Below are positions 10,541 to 31,941 of a DNA stretch of 64,000 nt, in pieces. The translations under genes were made by a program, and so were the position numbers. The first letter of the stretch is position 1. The number at the start of each line of letters is the position of its first letter. Location of the stretch: NCBI GenBank assembly GCA_045603745.1, contig JAZUMQ010000049.1:64743-128742 (forward strand), written 5' to 3'. The notes under the pieces are model-generated. The model made no database searches and was not told the origin of the DNA. It saw only the letters and a program-made list of their open reading frames with translations. Source of the DNA: Eubacteriales bacterium (GTDB taxonomy: Bacteria; Bacillota; Clostridia; Oscillospirales; UBA644).

Positions 10541-10617
10541 CCGGGCGTAGCGCAGTTTGGTAGCGCGCTTGAATGGGGTTCAAGAGGCCGTGGGTTCGAC
10601 TCCCGCCGCTCGGACCA
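10541..10617 (+). tRNA. tRNA-Pro (anticodon GGG)
   Basis: Hand-folded cloverleaf. Acceptor CCGGGCG/CGCTCGG, D arm GCGC-AGTTTGGTA-GCGC, anticodon arm CTTGA-AT GGG GT-TCAAG, T arm GTGGG-TTCGACT-CCCGC, discriminator A, encoded CCA. Confidence 0.9.
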
Positions 10618-10660: not shown

Positions 10661-10662
10661 GC

Positions 10663-10761
10663 ATTATTCACTATTCATTTTTCATTATTCATCATTCATT
10701 TAACAGGATTTTCAATGAATAATGAAGAATGAAGTCGCTTCCCTGATGAATAATGAATAAT
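10663..10761. repeat. Inverted arrays of phased heptamers (ATTATTC)n / (GAATAAT)n with no gene inside
   Basis: Left array 10663-10697: ATTATTC ACTATTC ATTTTTC ATTATTC ATCATTC. Right arrays: 10717-10737 GAATAAT GAAGAAT GAAGTCG, and 10748-10761 GAATAAT GAATAAT. 18 of 20 positions pair across a 13-nt loop. Confidence 0.75.
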
Positions 10762-23693: not shown

Positions 23694-24965
23694 TTATTTT
23701 CCGGCTTTCAGAGCGCGAGCACCGATGTCCTTGCGCCAAAAAGCGTTTTCAAACGTAATCTGATTTACCGCATCGTAGGCGGAGTTCAGAGCAGATTGCA
23801 AATCTTCTCCGGTTCCGGTGACACCCAACACACGACCACCGGAAGTCAGAAGTTTTCCGTCAGTCAATTTTGCACCCGCAACGTAGACCCGGTCTGCCAC
23901 GGAATCGGGCAGAGTGATTTCAAATCCGGTCTGATATTTTTGGGGATACCCCTTGGAAGCCATCACCACACAGGCACAAGCACCTTCCCGGAACTTTACC
24001 ATATCGGGAGTCAACGTGCCATCGGTGGTAGCTTTCATGACGGTGAGAAGGTCGCTTTCCAACAGCGGCAAGACCACCTGAGTTTCCGGATCTCCGAAAC
24101 GGCAGTTGTATTCGATCACTTTCGGTCCTTTGGGAGTAAGCATCAACCCAAAATAGAGACAACCCTGGAAGGTGCGTCCTTCGGCGTTCATAGCGTCGAT
24201 GGTGGGTTTAAAAATAGTATTCATGCAGATTTCTGCAATTTCTTCGGTGTAATAGGGGTTGGGAGCGACGGTACCCATACCGCCGGTATTTAACCCTTCA
24301 TCGTTATCCAGTGCCCGCTTATGATCCATGGACGAGACCATGGGAACGACGGTCTTTCCGTCGGTGAAAGACAGGACGGACACTTCGGGACCGGTCAAAA
24401 ATTCTTCGATAACCACACGGCTTCCGCTTTCTCCGAAAATTTTGTCTTCCATCATGGAACGGACGGCGTCTTTGGCTTCGTCTCGGGTCATGGCAATGAC
24501 AACCCCTTTGCCCAATGCCAAACCGTCGGCTTTGATGACGGTGGGAATGGGAGCGGTTTCCAAATATTCCAATGCTTCGTCCATTTCGGTAAACACTTCG
24601 TATTCCGCCGTGGGAATCTTATACTTTTTCATCAAGTCTTTGGAAAAGACTTTACTGCCTTCGATGATGGCGGCGTTTGCTTTGGGGCCAAAACAAGGGA
24701 TTCCCACCGCGTTTAAGGCGTCAACACAACCGAGAACCAAAGGATCATCGGGAGCAACAACGGCGTAATCAATTTGATGTTCGGTGGCAAATTTTACGAT
24801 ATTTTCAATATCTTTAGCCCCAATATCAACGCAGGTGGCGTCGGCGGCGATCCCACCGTTTCCGGGCAAAGCAAAAATCTCGGTTACGTCGGGATTTTCA
24901 CGCAATTTTTTAATGATAGTATGTTCGCGCCCCCCGCTTCCGACAACTAATAATCTTTTATCCAT
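23694..24965 (-). CDS. purD: Phosphoribosylamine--glycine ligase
   Basis: 423 aa: MDKRLLVVGSGGREHTI..., ATP-grasp fold. SD GGAGAAAGG. Confidence 0.95.
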   Translation of the reverse strand: MDKRLLVVGSGGREHTIIKKLRENPDVTEIFALPGNGGIAADATCVDIGAKDIENIVKFATEHQIDYAVVAPDDPLVLGCVDALNAVGIPCFGPKANAAIIEGSKVFSKDLMKKYKIPTAEYEVFTEMDEALEYLETAPIPTVIKADGLALGKGVVIAMTRDEAKDAVRSMMEDKIFGESGSRVVIEEFLTGPEVSVLSFTDGKTVVPMVSSMDHKRALDNDEGLNTGGMGTVAPNPYYTEEIAEICMNTIFKPTIDAMNAEGRTFQGCLYFGLMLTPKGPKVIEYNCRFGDPETQVVLPLLESDLLTVMKATTDGTLTPDMVKFREGACACVVMASKGYPQKYQTGFEITLPDSVADRVYVAGAKLTDGKLLTSGGRVLGVTGTGEDLQSALNSAYDAVNQITFENAFWRKDIGARALKAGK

Positions 24966-24990
24966 ATTACTATCTTACCTTTCTCCACAG

Positions 24991-25025
24991 AGTGGAAAGT
25001 GAAGAGTGAAGAGTGAAGAGTGTAT
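24991..25025. repeat. Heptamer array (AGTGAAG)n, promoter-distal flank of the four-helix-bundle cassette
   Basis: In phase: AGTGGAA AGTGAAG AGTGAAG AGTGAAG AGTGTAT. The last unit overlaps the cassette stop codon (25025-25027). Confidence 0.8.
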
Positions 25026-25372
25026 CATTTCGCAGATTTTGTCGTAGCAAACAAGATACGACGAATGGATTCGCAATCGTCAAAAAGGGAGATGTACTCC
25101 TCTTTCGACAAATAATCTGCGATATGCAATAATTCCAATCAATATAAAGTTTCCGCACACTCCTTCAAAGAAATATAAATTTTCGCGGTAAAATCTTTTT
25201 TACTAGAACCGTAGCGCGCTTCCGCAATATTAGCACCGATACTTGTACCGCTACGAAGAATCTGTTTGGAAAGTACATATTCGTTATGCTCGGATCGCAA
25301 ATGAAGGCAAAGATCTACAATGCGTTTTGCAAAAGCAAGAGCTTTCGTATAAGCAACGCTCTCGTTCGCCAT
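25025..25372 (-). pseudogene. Four-helix-bundle protein (23S rRNA intervening-sequence protein family) interrupted by an in-frame TGA
   Basis: MANESVAYTKALAFAKRIVDLCLHLRSEHNEYVLSKQILRSGTSIGANIAEARYGSSKKDFTAKIYISLKECAETLY-TGA-LELLHIADYLSKEEYISLFDDCESIRRILFATTKSAK. The same frame continues past the TGA at 25139-25141. The family normally has E-T-x-Y-W-L at this point. Confidence 0.8.
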
Positions 25373-25374
25373 AT

Positions 25375-25409
25375 CTTCGCTCTCCTATCTTCACTCTTAA
25401 CTCTTTTTA
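25375..25409. repeat. Heptamer array (CTTCACT)n, promoter-proximal flank of the cassette, inverted relative to 24991-25025
   Basis: In phase: CTTCGCT CTCCTAT CTTCACT CTTAACT CTTTTTA. The array contains the cassette SD (AGGAGAG on the minus strand) and overlaps the purH stop (25407-25409). Confidence 0.75.
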
Positions 25410-26591
25410 GTGGTGGAACAGTCGAAGTCCGGTAAATGCCATGGCGATGCCAAGTTCGTTACAACGGGCGATGACCACATCGTCACGGATCGAGCCGCCG
25501 GGTTCGGCGATGTAATCCGCACCGCTGGCGTAGGCACGCTGAATGTTGTCGTCGAAGGGGAAGAAAGCGTCGGAACCGAGAGCAACGCCGCGAATGGTAG
25601 CAAGATATGCTTTCATTTCCTCGGCGGTAAAAGGTTCGGGACGGACGGTGAAATATTTCTGCCAAATGCCTTCGGCGCAAACGTCTTCTTCGTTTTTGTT
25701 GATATAGCCGTCAATGACATTGTCGCGTTCAGGGCGGGACAATTCTTCTTTGAAGGGAAGGTTCAGAACCTTGTCTGCCTGGCGAAGATGCCAGGTGTCT
25801 GCTTTGCCCCCGGCAAGACGGGTGCAATGGATTCTCGATTGCTGCCCGGCACCAACACCGATTGCCTGACCGTCAACGGCATAGCAAACGGAATTGGATT
25901 GAGTGTATTTCAGAGTAATCAAGGCGACGACCAGATCCCGTTTGGCGGATTCGGGGAGATTTTTGTTTTCGGTCACGACGTTTTCCAGCATCTTTGCATC
26001 AATGCGGACGTCGTTTCTGCCCTGTTCAAAGGTGATGCCGTAAACTTGCTTATGTTCAATAGCAGCGGGAACGTAATCGGGGTCGATTTTAACCACGTTA
26101 TAGTTTCCTTTGCGCTTGGTTTTCAAAAGTTCCAGAGCTTCGTCGGTATATCCGGGAGCGATGACACCGTCGGAAACTTCCCGGAAGATCAATTGGGCCG
26201 TCATCAGATCGCAAACGTCGGACAGTGCAACCCAGTCTCCGTAGGAGCACATACGGTCGGTTCCCCGAGCTCGGGCATAGGCGCAAGCCAGAGGGTTTTC
26301 GTCCAAGCCTTCAATGTCGTCCACAAAGCAAGCCTTTTTGAGTTTTTCGGGCAGAGGCGTACCGACGGCGGCAGAGGTGGGAGAAACGTGCTTAAAAGAT
26401 GCCGCCGCAGGAAGTCCCAGAGCCTCTTTCAATTCCTTAACCAACTGCCAAGAATTAAAGGCGTCCAAAAAGTTGATATAACCGGGGCGTCCGGAGAGAA
26501 TTTCGATGGGAAGATCACTTCCGTCGTGCATAAAAATTTTTGCAGGTTTCTGATTGGGGTTACAACCGTATTTCAATTCATACTCTTTCAT
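25407..26591 (-). CDS. purH: Phosphoribosylaminoimidazolecarboxamide (AICAR) formyltransferase, transformylase domain only
   Basis: 394 aa: MKEYELKYGCNPNQKPA..., ...GGSIRDDVVIARCNELGIAMAFTGLRLFHH. It lacks the N-terminal MGS-like IMP cyclohydrolase domain of bifunctional PurH. Confidence 0.9.
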   Translation of the reverse strand: MKEYELKYGCNPNQKPAKIFMHDGSDLPIEILSGRPGYINFLDAFNSWQLVKELKEALGLPAAASFKHVSPTSAAVGTPLPEKLKKACFVDDIEGLDENPLACAYARARGTDRMCSYGDWVALSDVCDLMTAQLIFREVSDGVIAPGYTDEALELLKTKRKGNYNVVKIDPDYVPAAIEHKQVYGITFEQGRNDVRIDAKMLENVVTENKNLPESAKRDLVVALITLKYTQSNSVCYAVDGQAIGVGAGQQSRIHCTRLAGGKADTWHLRQADKVLNLPFKEELSRPERDNVIDGYINKNEEDVCAEGIWQKYFTVRPEPFTAEEMKAYLATIRGVALGSDAFFPFDDNIQRAYASGADYIAEPGGSIRDDVVIARCNELGIAMAFTGLRLFHH

Positions 26592-26603
26592 TTTGCTTCT
26601 CCC

Positions 26604-27320
26604 TTATTTATTTTTATTGACGATTCGCGTTTCACTGTCTCCGGTTGCAAGGTCGATATAACGGACGAACAGAGAAACCTTATTGTCTTCGTTGAGATTT
26701 GTCCAAATCAGGTCGGTCAAAGAATCAATATCCAGATCGGGTAATTCCAAGGTTTTGGGTTCTCCTTCGTAAGAAGGCAAAGGGTTGCCGTCGCCGTTAT
26801 AGGTATGGATAAATTTGGCTCTGCCGTTGAGGGGATTGGTGTAGGCATAGGTAAAACGCTCACAGGAAGAATCGTCTCCCTCGGCGGATTTCAAAATGGA
26901 CATGGCAAAGTTCATTTCACCCTGCTCGTGGTGAATGATTCCGGAGATGCGGGGAGTAAAGTTGGGAGCATCGTCCTCAAATTCTCGGGTGCGCAACGCC
27001 TGTTCAAAGGTCATTTGTTTATCCATCAGATCGTAAACGGTATCGGTCTGATCTCCGTTGGTGACGATGGTCTTGTTTCCGAGAACGCGGACGGGGTAAT
27101 AAATAATAAGGTGAGGATCGGTCATTTTGGATTCGTCGAACGCTTTGGTGCGCATGGCATCGCCCTCGGCGACAAAAATACGGTTGCGGCTATTTTCACT
27201 TCTGCCCATAATAAAGTAGGCAGTGACCGCTTTTTTTCCGTCGGCGGATTTGCCGATGATGATTCCTCTGCCGTGGTATGCCAGGGAATTGAGTTCATTT
27301 GCAATGGTGGAAATATTCAT
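26604..27320 (-). CDS. IMP cyclohydrolase, PurO-like (archaeal-type)
   Basis: Starts at ATG 27318-27320 behind GAGGAG (MNISTIANELNSLAYHGRGIIIGKS...). Motifs GRSENSRNR, NGDQTD and TPRISG resemble PurO. Confidence 0.8.
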   Translation of the reverse strand: MNISTIANELNSLAYHGRGIIIGKSADGKKAVTAYFIMGRSENSRNRIFVAEGDAMRTKAFDESKMTDPHLIIYYPVRVLGNKTIVTNGDQTDTVYDLMDKQMTFEQALRTREFEDDAPNFTPRISGIIHHEQGEMNFAMSILKSAEGDDSSCERFTYAYTNPLNGRAKFIHTYNGDGNPLPSYEGEPKTLELPDLDIDSLTDLIWTNLNEDNKVSLFVRYIDLATGDSETRIVNKNK

Positions 27321-27340
27321 ATTCAATCTCCTCTCGGACT

Positions 27341-27973
27341 TCAATCAATAATAACTTTGTCGTCAACAACGCGAATCTTTCCTTGACAGAACAGTTTGAC
27401 CGCTTCGGGCAAAATCTTCCATTCTGCTTCTTCCATGATTCGTTGTTGCAGTGTTTCGGGGGTATCGTCGGGTTTGACTTCCACCGCTTTTTGCAGGATA
27501 ATGGGACCTGCATCACATTCGGGGGTCACGATATGAACCGTAGCACCCGAAATTTTTACGCCCTTTTCCAGAGCCGCCTCATGAACACGAAGTCCGTAAT
27601 ATCCTTTCCCGCAGAACGATGGAATCAGCGCAGGGTGAACGTTGATAATGCGATTGGGGAAGGCTTGATACACCTGTTCATCGATGATAGTCAGAAATCC
27701 TGCCAGAACCACAAGATCAATATTCTCTTCTTTCAAAGTATCCGCTAACGCCTTGGAATAATCGGCAATGGATTCAAAAGCTTTCCGAGGAAGCACTTTG
27801 GAAGGGATTCCATGATCCTCGGCTCGTTGCAAGGCGTAAACGCCCGGTTTCGATGCCAAAACGAGGGAAATTGTTCCGCCGCCGAACATTCCGGTTTTTT
27901 CCGCGTCGATCAAGGCTTGAAGATTCGTTCCGCCTCCGGAAACCAAGACGGCGATCCGGGTGGTGTTCAGCAT
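27341..27973 (-). CDS. purN: Phosphoribosylglycinamide formyltransferase
   Basis: 210 aa: [28 protein letters not shown]. Confidence 0.93.
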
Positions 27974-31807: not shown

Positions 31808-31843
31808 ATAAAAAAGGGCACGCTCCCCTTCGGAAGTGTGCCC
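31808..31843 (-). terminator. Intrinsic terminator, expression platform of the ZTP riboswitch
   Basis: Minus strand: GGGCAC-a-CUUCC-gaag-GGGAG-c-GUGCCC followed by U6. The 5' arm overlaps the conserved CUGGGCA of the aptamer. Confidence 0.8.
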
Positions 31844-31906
31844 AGACGGTCGGCAATACAGGTTCTTTGCTTCATGTGGTAATCCACTTCCGTCAGTCGC
31901 AAAGAA
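31839..31906 (-). promoter_or_regulatory. ZTP riboswitch aptamer (pfl motif)
   Basis: Minus strand: UUCUUUGC-GACUGACGGAA-GUGG-AUUA-CCAC-AUGAA-GCAAAGAA-linker-GCCGACCGUCUGGGCA. P1 and P2 pair, and both conserved boxes (GACUGRCGG..., CCGACCGYCUGGGC) match the class as I remember it. Confidence 0.85.
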
Positions 31907-31941
31907 TCGAAGCGAACAACCCGGACGGGCCATCCGTATAT

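Follow-up and report, generated by a model that had tools for sequence, protein, structure and literature searches.

A four-helix-bundle gene between inverted heptamer arrays in a purine operon: an IVS-like cassette of a widespread, apparently undescribed class

ORF-containing intervening sequences (IVSs) of 23S rRNA, found in Coxiella burnetii and also in Leptospira and Brucella, are the closest known systems to the element considered here. In the Coxiella IVS, tandem heptamers (GACAGAT, three to four copies) are located just 5′ of the ATG, the termini form a 28-bp stem, and this stem is cut by RNase III in vitro where the first repeat begins (PMC4990558).

Heptamer repeats have also been described in bacteria in their own right, such as the cyanobacterial STRR sequences, TAACTGA (Beggiatoaceae, Cyanobacteria, and Bacteroidetes), GGGAATC (Xanthomonas), and TTTTGAA (Nostoc). 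They have been treated as stand-alone simple sequence repeats (SSRs), G-quadruplexes, or regulator sites, with S1, Csp, or CsrA as proposed binders. Heptanucleotide SSRs are reported to be the most over-represented class of long SSRs, possibly owing to polymerase slippage (cited in PMC4679880 and PMC4692102), and a heptamer-binding regulator has been postulated in Beggiatoaceae (PMC4679880) and Nostoc (bioRxiv 10.1101/2022.06.06.494920). According to the supplement of the heptamer papers, a GGGAATC array lies over the start codon of XCC0516 in a Xanthomonas genome with 186 such arrays; XCC0516 is a crystallised member of the four-helix-bundle family. For decades, four puzzles have been kept separate: where ORF-bearing rRNA IVSs come from and what they do (1990s), the role of the four helix bundle protein family, which is very common, the STRR heptamers of cyanobacteria (1990), and the genome-wide excess of 7-nt repeats (2007).

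Here, we describe a cassette in a purine (pur) operon that is one member of a widespread and apparently undescribed class. Each cassette of the class consists of a gene for a roughly 115-aa four-helix-bundle (hb) protein with an Avd-like fold, placed between two inverted tandem arrays of 7-nt units; typically, each array has four to five units, the 5′ arm is purine-rich, the 3′ arm is pyrimidine-rich, and the cassette is co-directional with its host operon. No paper linking the family to heptamer repeats was found in the literature searched, which consisted of open-access full texts and leaves room for an earlier description.

The cassette in the purH-purD junction

The window is a 64,000-nt stretch of a genome assigned to Oscillospirales, and its relevant features are listed in Table 1. 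A sequence-only reading had proposed that an IVS-like cassette fills the only long gap of the pur operon. This gap is indeed 441 nt long, from the purH stop to the purD ATG, while the remaining gaps range from -7 to 76 nt. All neighbours of the hb gene in the window are pur genes by Pfam. No rRNA was found in the window, and the cassette sits between the AICARFT gene and purD and not in 23S helix 9, 25, or 45. Searches of the cassette region yielded no intrinsic terminator and promoter-like matches only at chance level (3 found, 1.6 expected); Rfam families matched neither the window region nor any of 20 related loci, and no further hb copy was detected in the window with an HMM built from 120 homologues and run in all six frames.

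Table 1. Coordinates of the cassette, its neighbours, and a related hairpin in the window
Feature	Position	Strand	Basis
AICAR formyltransferase (purH-like, 394 aa), upstream operon gene	25407..26591	-	Pfam PF01808 E=3e-54; ORF list
purH TAA stop, abutting 5′ array	25409-25407	-	sequence
5′ arm, purine-rich heptamer array (mRNA sense)	25373..25406	-	sequence, inverted repeat, MFE pairing
hb gene, PF05635/TIGR02436, 115 codons, in-frame TGA	25025..25372	-	profiles, homologue motif, orthologue comparison
3′ arm, pyrimidine-rich heptamer array (mRNA sense)	24989..25024	-	TRF, inverted repeat, MFE pairing
Spacer with purD ribosome-binding site (GGAGAAAGG)	24966..24988	-	fold, junction comparison
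purD (GAR synthetase, 423 aa), downstream operon gene	23694..24965	-	Pfam GARS_N/A/C
ORF-less inverted heptamer-array hairpin	10662..10756	+	TRF, sequence, pattern search, fold

With regard to the gene, which had been taken for a 115-codon member of the IVS protein family, the family assignment stands and the intact reading frame does not. When TGA is read as Trp, the product scores 100.6 bits against PF05635 (cut-off 33.8, E=7e-29) and 106.6 bits against TIGR02436 (cut-off 24, E=7e-31). Codon 78 (25141-25139) is an in-frame TGA that had been missed, and the product in the public annotation (P0095) has only 77 aa. Trp is invariant at this position: 109 of 120 homologues matched the ...Y-W-L motif, every one with W (the other 11 gave no match to the search motif), and the orthologues L009, L184, and L185 have TGG. 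The use of TGA for Trp (genetic code 4) was rejected, since all ten genes around hb in the operon, namely nine pur genes (the 1229-aa purL among them) and fhs, are uninterrupted under table 11, which places the genome on the standard code; the TGG of the orthologues contradicts it as well. A TGA at an invariant Trp codon thus suggests that the copy in the window was freshly inactivated, and it may represent either a recent pseudogene (TGG>TGA) or a base-call error. A 97%-identical orthologue was modelled as four helices (pLDDT 93.7) with TM 0.92 to 2RLD, 0.86-0.88 to 2GSC, and 0.78 to Avd (4DWL); the predicted structure is therefore a four-helix bundle like that of 2RLD and 2GSC.

The inverted heptamer arrays reported around the gene are real, although a tandem period of 7 is clear only in the 3′ array, the 5′ array being more degenerate. 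In mRNA sense, the 3′ array reads TACACTC TTCACTC TTCACTC TTCACTT TCCACTC T and begins directly after the TGA stop of the hb gene; it is recovered by TRF at 24989-25022 (period 7, 4.9 copies, 88% matches) and comprises at least three head-to-tail 7-nt units, as do STRR-like SSRs. The 5′ array (AAAGAGT TAAGAGT GAAGATA GGAGAGC GAAGAT in mRNA sense) has two good units; it contains the Shine-Dalgarno sequence (AGGAG) of the hb gene and ends at its ATG. The claimed complementarity was borne out, the stem-forming cores at 25388-25405 (5′ arm) and 25002-25019 (3′ arm) being complementary at 94% over 18 nt. In the minimum-free-energy fold of 24966-25420, the arms are paired (z=-4.1), and none of 100 shuffles folded as well. 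As in IVSs, terminal inverted repeats would thus form an extended stem enclosing the insert, and the arrangement is conserved in orthologues.

Words like AGTGAAGAGTGAAG occur 11 times in the window (3.6 expected), nine of them within two loci. The ORF-less hairpin of Table 1 (CATTATT/CACTATT... against AATGAAT/AATGAAG...) is located just downstream of a tRNA-Pro gene; its unit is one base off the cassette unit AGTGAAG, and its predicted fold has -26.5 kcal/mol (z=-2.7). On the purD side, a GAAAGG motif occurs 12-17 nt before the purD ATG in all filled junctions whose spacer was read except L096, independently of the cassette type carried. According to the fold, a 7-bp local hairpin could form between this motif and the last unit of the 3′ array (24982-24998).

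Inheritance of the cassette at the junction

Eight close homologues were looked up (64-97% identity), and each of them is found in the order IMP cyclohydrolase-AICARFT-hb-purD with complementary arrays. The hb identities (89, 77, 76, 73, and 63%) track those of purH (99, 77, 75, 76, and 66%). Between the window and L009, synonymous divergence (pS) is 0.59 for hb, 0.53 for purH, and 0.57 for purD; a recent landing of the cassette, as suggested by the sequence-only reading, is not supported by this equal divergence of hb and its neighbours. The hb dN/dS of 0.05 in the same comparison points to strong purifying selection in relatives. In the 5′ arm and spacer, 33 of 34 nt are identical to L009 at a synonymous pS of about 0.55, while indels in the 3′ array amount to exactly one heptamer (-7 nt in L009, +7 nt in L184).

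The junction is not always occupied by the same cassette. It is empty in L001, one of several equidistant relatives, for which loss is the more likely explanation, and a comparison of filled and empty junctions revealed no target-site duplication. In L096, the flanks resemble L081 (purD 94%, purH 86%) but the hb gene and arrays resemble L094 (81% versus 66%), and the switch in similarity falls at the cassette ends. Across related genomes, at least four unit types are found upstream of purD, some of them in ORF-less pairs (L008 and L074). The cassette has long been present between purH and purD in ruminant-gut Oscillospirales and has been passed on mostly vertically, with at least one loss and at least one replacement (a cassette swap) in its lineage.

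These observations bear on the possibility of a mobile DNA element that has the inverted arrays as its ends, the hb gene as passenger or helper, the RNA stem as a by-product, and ORF-less pairs as non-autonomous copies, comparable to MITEs or REPIN-RAYT systems. The replacement in L096, the presence or absence among equidistant relatives, and the several unit types and ORF-less pairs upstream of purD would fit such an element, as would two AAAATTC mini-elements on a Nostoc plasmid, which share their inner sequence and hence are dispersed copies. On the other hand, no transposase, integrase, or reverse transcriptase was found among 107 neighbouring proteins from related loci (with hits to 125 different Pfam families), there is neither a target-site duplication nor a conserved terminal motif, the ORF-less pairs contain no hb remnants, and the purH-purD lineage is mostly vertical. 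In addition, a strong purine/pyrimidine strand asymmetry relative to the ORF is unexpected for symmetric terminal repeats. A mobile element is therefore considered distinctly unlikely.

Recurrence of gene and arrays across the family

The family was surveyed in about 70 (67-77) non-redundant loci from Bacillota, Cyanobacteria, Bacteroidota, and Spirochaetota, and the same design of hb gene and arrays was also seen in Euhalothece, Nostoc, Planktothrix, Bernardetia, and Treponema. Candidates for carriers that can be cultured are Xanthomonas campestris (accB-XCC0516), Nostoc flagelliforme, Bacteroides thetaiotaomicron (BT_0352), and Oscillospiraceae isolates with purH-hb-purD. An array is present in 44 of 73 upstream flanks (60%) and in 17 of 730 control windows (2.3%; OR 64, p=7e-39). 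Of the arrays, 42/43 upstream and 35/39 downstream ones have a period of 7, and 956 kb of fetched DNA contained 152 arrays of this period and at most five of any other period from 5 to 11. Arrays have a median of 4.4 units (IQR about 4-5); the 5′ arm is purine-rich at 49 of 53 loci and the 3′ arm pyrimidine-rich at 44 of 47. The adjacent genes run in the same direction as hb in 52/63 and 44/58 cases, the median gaps being 48 and 30 nt. The unit sequence varies between loci, but cognate arms match one another: they pair at -30.7 kcal/mol versus -18.5 for non-cognate arms (p=1e-14), with a unit complementarity of 6.4/7 versus 4.1/7. About one quarter of the family members have no detectable arrays, for example the phage-type L170 and L181, and a tmRNA gene looked for beside L098 was not found. 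On these sequence comparisons, the gene-plus-arrays architecture is a hallmark across the four-helix-bundle family.

A chance origin of the arrays was rejected on the fold statistics, the word enrichment, the pairing of cognate arms, and the flank enrichment. Likewise, it is highly improbable that the arrays are neutral, functionless products of replication slippage whose association with the gene is incidental. The over-representation of heptamers among long SSRs and the whole-unit indels between strains would agree with slippage, which nevertheless does not account for the enrichment at hb flanks, the cognate-specific complementarity, the conservation of the 5′ arm where about 55% of synonymous sites have diverged, or the consistent placement and strand bias.

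Heptamer units are also found away from hb genes. The Nostoc plasmid pNFSY06 has five family genes, each with its own unit, and ORF-less arrays on the plasmid reuse the units of hb genes (AAAATTC x10, AATTCGC x6, and AATTACG x6). Among the Nostoc proteins, WP_100903723 has the unit GCAATTC and WP_100903735 the unit TAATTCG, one base apart. In several metagenome loci, arrays elsewhere carry the unit of the local hb gene, and TTTTGAA/AATTCAA as well as TAACTGA-like sequences are among the units seen in this analysis. Such reuse would be expected if the arrays were primarily binding sites for a pentameric hb protein, one subunit per heptamer in a TRAP-like manner, serving autoregulation and the control of other genes with the same heptamer near their start, with the long-range stem being secondary. 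The tight array size, the five chains in crystallised 2RLD and 2GSC, the pentameric Avd that contacts RNA in the DGR RNP, the start-codon array of XCC0516, and the regulators postulated in Beggiatoaceae and Nostoc point in the same direction, as do two 73%-identical Nostoc paralogues whose units differ at one of seven bases. However, binding of heptamers by the protein is putative, 28 positions of the protein are invariant despite a great diversity of units, the similarity of units is only weakly correlated with protein identity (rho=0.14), a correlation that co-inheritance alone would produce, and the need for complementary arms is left unexplained. Binding as the primary role seems unlikely on this evidence.

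Proposed processing and comparison with known systems

We lean towards the view that the feature is an IVS-type stem-loop cassette resident in an mRNA operon, acting through RNA pairing and RNase III processing. The IVS-like interpretation is supported by the position of the PF05635 ORF, which occupies the loop of a long-range stem, by the Coxiella-like layout, and by the recurrence of this layout across the family. Lacking its own promoter and terminator, the cassette would be transcribed within the ZTP-riboswitch-controlled pur polycistron. The arms would then pair into an 18-30-bp helix with the ORF looped out, and this helix is probably an RNase III substrate, by analogy with the Coxiella 23S IVS. 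Cleavage would release the ORF-bearing loop and leave the operon transcript divided at a defined site; since the 5′ arm holds the hb ribosome-binding site, pairing or cleavage would keep hb translation low. The arrays presumably change through whole-unit slippage, with arm complementarity maintained while the unit sequence turns over.

Several observations count against this stem model. Pairing by itself explains neither the period of 7 nor the sharing of units with ORF-less arrays on the same replicon. There are family members without arrays, and the Coxiella ORF is thought to be untranslated, in contrast to the purifying selection seen here. Moreover, the duplex is more stable in sense at 22 loci and in antisense at 17 (G-U asymmetry, p=0.13, not significant), and thus the inverted arrays may have a role at the DNA level.

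In a broader and tentative reading, hb (IVS/Avd-like) proteins and inverted heptamer arrays might constitute a pan-bacterial two-part module with paralogue-specific 7-nt units, in which ORF-less pairs of the same unit are non-autonomous copies or binding sites. If true, this would name the partner of the bacterial heptamer repeats (STRR, TAACTGA, GGGAATC, and TTTTGAA), give a reason for 7-nt repeats being the most over-represented among the long simple repeats of bacteria, and account for the origin of ORF-bearing rRNA IVSs. What travels together, in at least four phyla and inside ordinary mRNA operons, is the protein family and the inverted arrays, with gene-specific units common to ORF-less copies. 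A widespread element is thereby flagged that may be able to split or tune operon transcripts, and vague questions become direct tests, namely RNase III cutting of mRNA stems and pentamer binding of cognate heptamers.

Three known classes of element were rejected as identities for the cassette: a transposon or MITE, given the lack of a target duplication (filled versus empty junction) and of a transposase among the neighbouring proteins; a diversity-generating retroelement, there being no reverse transcriptase, template, or variable repeats near the hb gene; and an integron cassette, as neighbours show no integrase domain, attC R/L core sites are absent, and the arrays are tandem heptamers of variable sequence. 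Integron (attC) cassettes are nevertheless similar in that they are promoterless small ORFs inserted co-directionally, with imperfect inverted repeats conserved in structure and not in sequence; they differ in forming arrays of cassettes, whereas hb cassettes are single, with tandem-heptamer repeats at both ends. Avd, the DGR accessory protein, has the same fold as the modelled hb protein (TM 0.78 to 4DWL and 8UBE) and forms a positively charged pentameric barrel, but its sequence identity to hb is only about 12%.

REP/REPIN-RAYT (TnpA-REP) systems likewise comprise a single small gene between inverted copies of a short repeat. As with the Nostoc cassettes, ORF-less inverted pairs of the repeat are dispersed over the same replicon, and every paralogue has a repeat variant of its own. 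A gene flanked by a dispersed repeat was seen on pNFSY06 and in several metagenome loci, while the window has just one related ORF-less hairpin. The hb protein is not a transposase but a 115-aa helical bundle without the HUH/Y1 features of RAYTs, and REPs are single palindromes, unlike tandem heptamer arrays.

The described heptamer repeats resemble the cassette arrays in being period-7 tandem, intergenic, and variable in copy number, and frequently end a few nt from a start codon; in Xanthomonas, there are 70-75 inverted pairs. None of the papers ties such repeats to four-helix-bundle genes, as is done here.

ORF-containing 23S IVSs differ in residing in helix 9, 25, or 45 of the rRNA, whereas the cassette is flanked by protein-coding genes on both sides within an mRNA operon. 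RNase III cleavage has been observed for the Coxiella stem and is predicted for the pur cassette. The Coxiella authors argue for ORF decay and no translation, in contrast to the cassette ORF in relatives. In layout, the Coxiella IVS and the cassette agree closely: both have a stem of terminal inverted repeats whose loop holds a PF05635 ORF, heptamers directly 5′ of the ATG with strain-variable copy number, and an AG-rich ribosome-binding region in the 5′ arm, and the 28-bp stem suggests that the Coxiella 3′ arm is a heptamer array as well.

The cassette in its operon

The host, placed in the Clostridia near Acutalibacteraceae/Oscillospiraceae, is an uncultured ruminant-gut bacterium whose purine operon is encoded by the window's minus strand (genes assigned by Pfam, riboswitch by Rfam). 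Because a ZMP/ZTP riboswitch stands at the head of this operon, the cassette would be transcribed under ZTP control. Operon junctions range from -7 to 76 nt, with the sole exception of purH-purD (441 nt). This gap, which the sequence-only reading described as filled by a four-helix-bundle gene (hb) between inverted, complementary heptamer arrays, was recovered as such from the sequence, from TRF-type detection of period 7, and from Pfam. The order IMPCH-AICARFT-hb-purD is kept in all relatives looked up.

Features of the window and of related loci (L-numbers)
Feature	Position	Strand	Basis or remark
ZMP/ZTP riboswitch	31833-31910	-	Rfam, 63 bits, above gathering score; head of operon
purE, purC, purF, purM, purN		-	Pfam; in this order after the riboswitch
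ORF at purF position, 474 aa	29053-30477	-	no Pfam match at E<=1e-10; all other operon genes matched
PurO-like IMP cyclohydrolase		-	PF07826; directly before purH
Split purH	25407-27344	-	AICARFT-only protein, separate IMP cyclohydrolase upstream
purH, AICARFT only, 394 aa	25407-26591	-	Pfam
5' array	25373-25406	-	complementary unit, more degenerate
hb ORF	25372-25025	-	fills purH-purD gap
hb codon 78	25141-25139	-	TGA
3' array	24989-25022	-	clean period-7 tandem repeat, 4.9 copies
Complementary arms	25002-25019, 25388-25405		18 nt each, complementarity 94%
Possible local hairpin before purD	24982-24998	-	7 bp
purD	23694-24965	-	Pfam; then purL and fhs
tRNA-Pro	10541-10617
ORF-less heptamer hairpin	10662-10756		CATTATT.../AATGAAG...
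ORF-less AGTAGTC/GACTACT arrays	L008 1090-1119, 3807-3965; L074 3809-3965		inverted, about 100 nt apart, directly upstream of purD
Swapped cassette	L096 746-1180
Direct-repeat flanks	L115 1440-1900
Family member with in-frame stop	L180 (NZ_OY725736.1) 80882-81217		unannotated

The proposed intact 115-codon gene stood as to family, with scores far above the PF05635 and TIGR02436 cut-offs, but not as to intactness. Its codon 78, at the family Trp of the motif E-T-x-Y-W-L, is a stop and reads TGG in three close orthologues; the public annotation holds only a 77-aa stub (P0095), and the remaining pur operon genes read normally in the standard code. The hb copy of the window has therefore either become a pseudogene very recently or contains a base-call error.

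Both arms, of which the 5' arm bears a private T>C change, are paired when the whole spacer takes its minimum-free-energy fold (z=-4.1), as had been foreseen. UUUCCAC, the final unit of the 3' array, might also fold with GUGGAGA, part of the ribosome-binding region of purD, into a local hairpin. GAAAGG occurs 12-17 nt before the purD ATG in the filled junctions read, except in the related locus L096, and is absent from empty junctions. Elsewhere in the window, right after tRNA-Pro and a terminator-like hairpin, lies an ORF-less hairpin of inverted heptamer arrays whose units (AATGAAG/AATGAAT) are one base from the cassette unit AGTGAAG, and which could represent a mini-cassette or else a binding site of a related kind.

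History at the purH-purD junction

Of the 80 species genomes closest in purD sequence, L009 alone carries hb at this junction. In the other purD relatives the junction is tight or occupied by a 1.3-kb gene, and L001, as distant as L009, has an empty junction (purH-TAA-14 nt-ATG-purD), most likely through loss of the cassette. With regard to the protein, the closest homologues looked up, eight in number and 64-97% identical, all lie between AICARFT and purD behind IMP cyclohydrolase, and complementary arrays are present at 8/8 of these loci. For one of the eight, more than 100 contigs are listed.

The divergence of hb between relatives follows that of its neighbours, and between the window and L009 the synonymous divergence is 0.59 for hb, 0.53 for purH and 0.57 for purD, with a dN/dS of 0.05 for hb. 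Since these values coincide and the site is shared among homologues, the cassette is an old, selected resident inherited mostly vertically; a recent date for the landing supposed in the sequence-only reading was not borne out. Selection acts on the hb protein and on the arms. Compared with L009, the window shows a single base change in the 34-nt 5' spacer; in the 3' array there are two substitutions plus an indel of exactly 7 nt, and the 3' array of another strain is 7 nt longer. The arrays change by whole-unit slippage, and the arms co-evolve.

The clear exception to vertical descent is L096, whose flanks are L081-like (purD 94%, purH 86%), whereas its hb and arrays are of the L094 type (81% vs 66% identity), with the unit TTAGGAA instead of AGTGAAG. 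The changeover of similarity falls at the cassette ends, and at least one cassette swap has taken place. An additional local heptamer hairpin follows the hb stop codon in L096.

At least four different heptamer units occur upstream of purD in related genomes, including ORF-less pairs. L008 and L074 have arrays of another unit and no gene at the site of the window cassette. L008 has another AGTAGTC array upstream of purH.

Heptamer arrays across the protein family

A metagenome scan with the family alignment gave 80 loci (47-64% identity) in many gene contexts, and statistics were computed on the non-redundant set. The best periodicity was 7 in 42/43 upstream and 35/39 downstream arrays, with a median size of 4.4 units (IQR about 4-5). 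Other family genes were expected to carry array flanks, and strict period-7 arrays occur in 44/73 upstream and 33/65 downstream flanks, compared with 17/730 control windows of the same loci (OR 64, p=7e-39). These loci form a cassette class to which the window locus belongs. Throughout the 956 kb of DNA examined, 152 arrays have period 7, and no other period in the range 5-11 is represented by more than 5 arrays.

The unit varies by locus (TTAGGAG, AGTGAAG, TTTAGAG, AATAGTG, GCATAAT, ATTACGA, ATTCGGA, TTAAACA, CAATTGA). Neighbouring genes are mostly co-directional (upstream 52/63, median gap 48 nt; downstream 44/58, median gap 30 nt), and 107 neighbouring proteins match 125 different Pfam families, with no recurrent partner, transposase, integrase or reverse transcriptase among them. 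The same design is found in finished plasmids of several phyla, namely Euhalothece (ACTGGTC x13), Nostoc, Planktothrix, Bernardetia (GATTAGT x9) and Treponema. A phage-type hb variant (L170, L181; phage contig MT835815.1; 47% identity) is without heptamer arrays on both sides. No Rfam family covers the array structures of the window region and related loci.

In L115, the downstream flank is a direct, not inverted, copy of the upstream flank (CAATTGAAAGTTGAAAATGGAAAGTGGAAAGTT), possibly a tandem or rearranged cassette. The family member of a Monoglobus plasmid (L180) lies within a type I restriction system, flanked by hsdS and hsdR, and has upstream arrays AATTAGG/AATGAGG; as methylase and ResIII neighbours occur at other hb loci, restriction-modification operons may be frequent cassette hosts.

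Proposed pairing or binding, and known systems

Cognate arms pair at -30.7 vs -18.5 kcal/mol for non-cognate arms (p=1e-14), the cognate arm being the single best of 71 partners in 21 loci, and the complementarity of unit consensuses is 6.4/7 vs 4.1/7. On the sense strand, the 5' arm is purine-rich (49/53) and the 3' arm pyrimidine-rich (44/47), an asymmetry that argues for a strand-specific (RNA) role; with regard to G-U pairs, the sense duplex is more stable in 22 and the antisense duplex in 17 loci (p=0.13).

Pairing alone leaves period 7 and the sharing of gene-specific units with ORF-less arrays unexplained. Nostoc flagelliforme plasmid pNFSY06 (239 kb) has 45 period-7 arrays vs 0-7 for other periods, and each of its 5/5 annotated family genes is bracketed by inverted arrays of its own unit (GGGAGCA, AATTCAA, GCAATTC, TAATTCG, GATTGSA), those of two 73% identical paralogues differing by one base. 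Inverted pairs with exactly these units recur elsewhere on pNFSY06 (10, 6, 6 and 3 ORF-less arrays in four of the five unit families), and no gene remnants were found in them. In metagenome loci, arrays distant from the hb gene usually bear the unit of its flanks. Two mutually compatible alternatives hence stand beside RNA pairing: the protein, as a pentamer, may bind its cognate heptamers, or the arrays may be mobile-element ends with non-autonomous copies. Two of the pNFSY06 ORF-less pairs have a common inner sequence and are thus copies of one another.

Among the long simple repeats of bacteria, heptanucleotide repeats are the most over-represented, according to work cited in PMC4679880 and PMC4692102. 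In Beggiatoaceae, Cyanobacteria and Bacteroidetes, TAACTGA arrays adjoin start codons (PMC4679880), and GGGAATC arrays form 70-75 inverted pairs in Xanthomonas (PMC4692102). In Xanthomonas campestris, repeat #15 consists of four GGGAATC units, lies 6 nt from accB/bccP (XCC0517) (PMC4692102, supplementary file 2) and extends over the start codon of XCC0516, listed only as 'conserved' (PMC4692102). XCC0516 belongs to the family and has been crystallised as a pentamer (2GSC); a structure model of an hb orthologue has TM scores of 0.92 to 2RLD, 0.86-0.88 to 2GSC and 0.78 to Avd, the accessory protein of diversity-generating retroelements. The protein family is unmentioned in these published heptamer-repeat studies, and no description of its association with heptamer repeats, the broader association onto which this locus opens, was found in the open-access literature.

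The best-studied ORF-bearing 23S rRNA intervening sequence (IVS), that of Coxiella burnetii, has an AG-rich ribosome-binding region and 3-4 tandem GACAGAT heptamers, varying in number by strain, right before the ATG of a PF05635 ORF, and in vitro RNase III cut it where the first repeat begins (PMC4990558). By analogy, the arms would base-pair within the pur transcript and be cleaved by RNase III. Such cleavage would release the loop with the ORF and divide the pur mRNA at the purH-purD junction; since the 5' arm contains the ribosome-binding site of the cassette gene, it would also curb translation of that gene. The description as an IVS-like cassette within an mRNA operon stands, given the array flanks across the family and a layout that, as read from the IVS 5' side, is that of the Coxiella IVS (PMC4990558).
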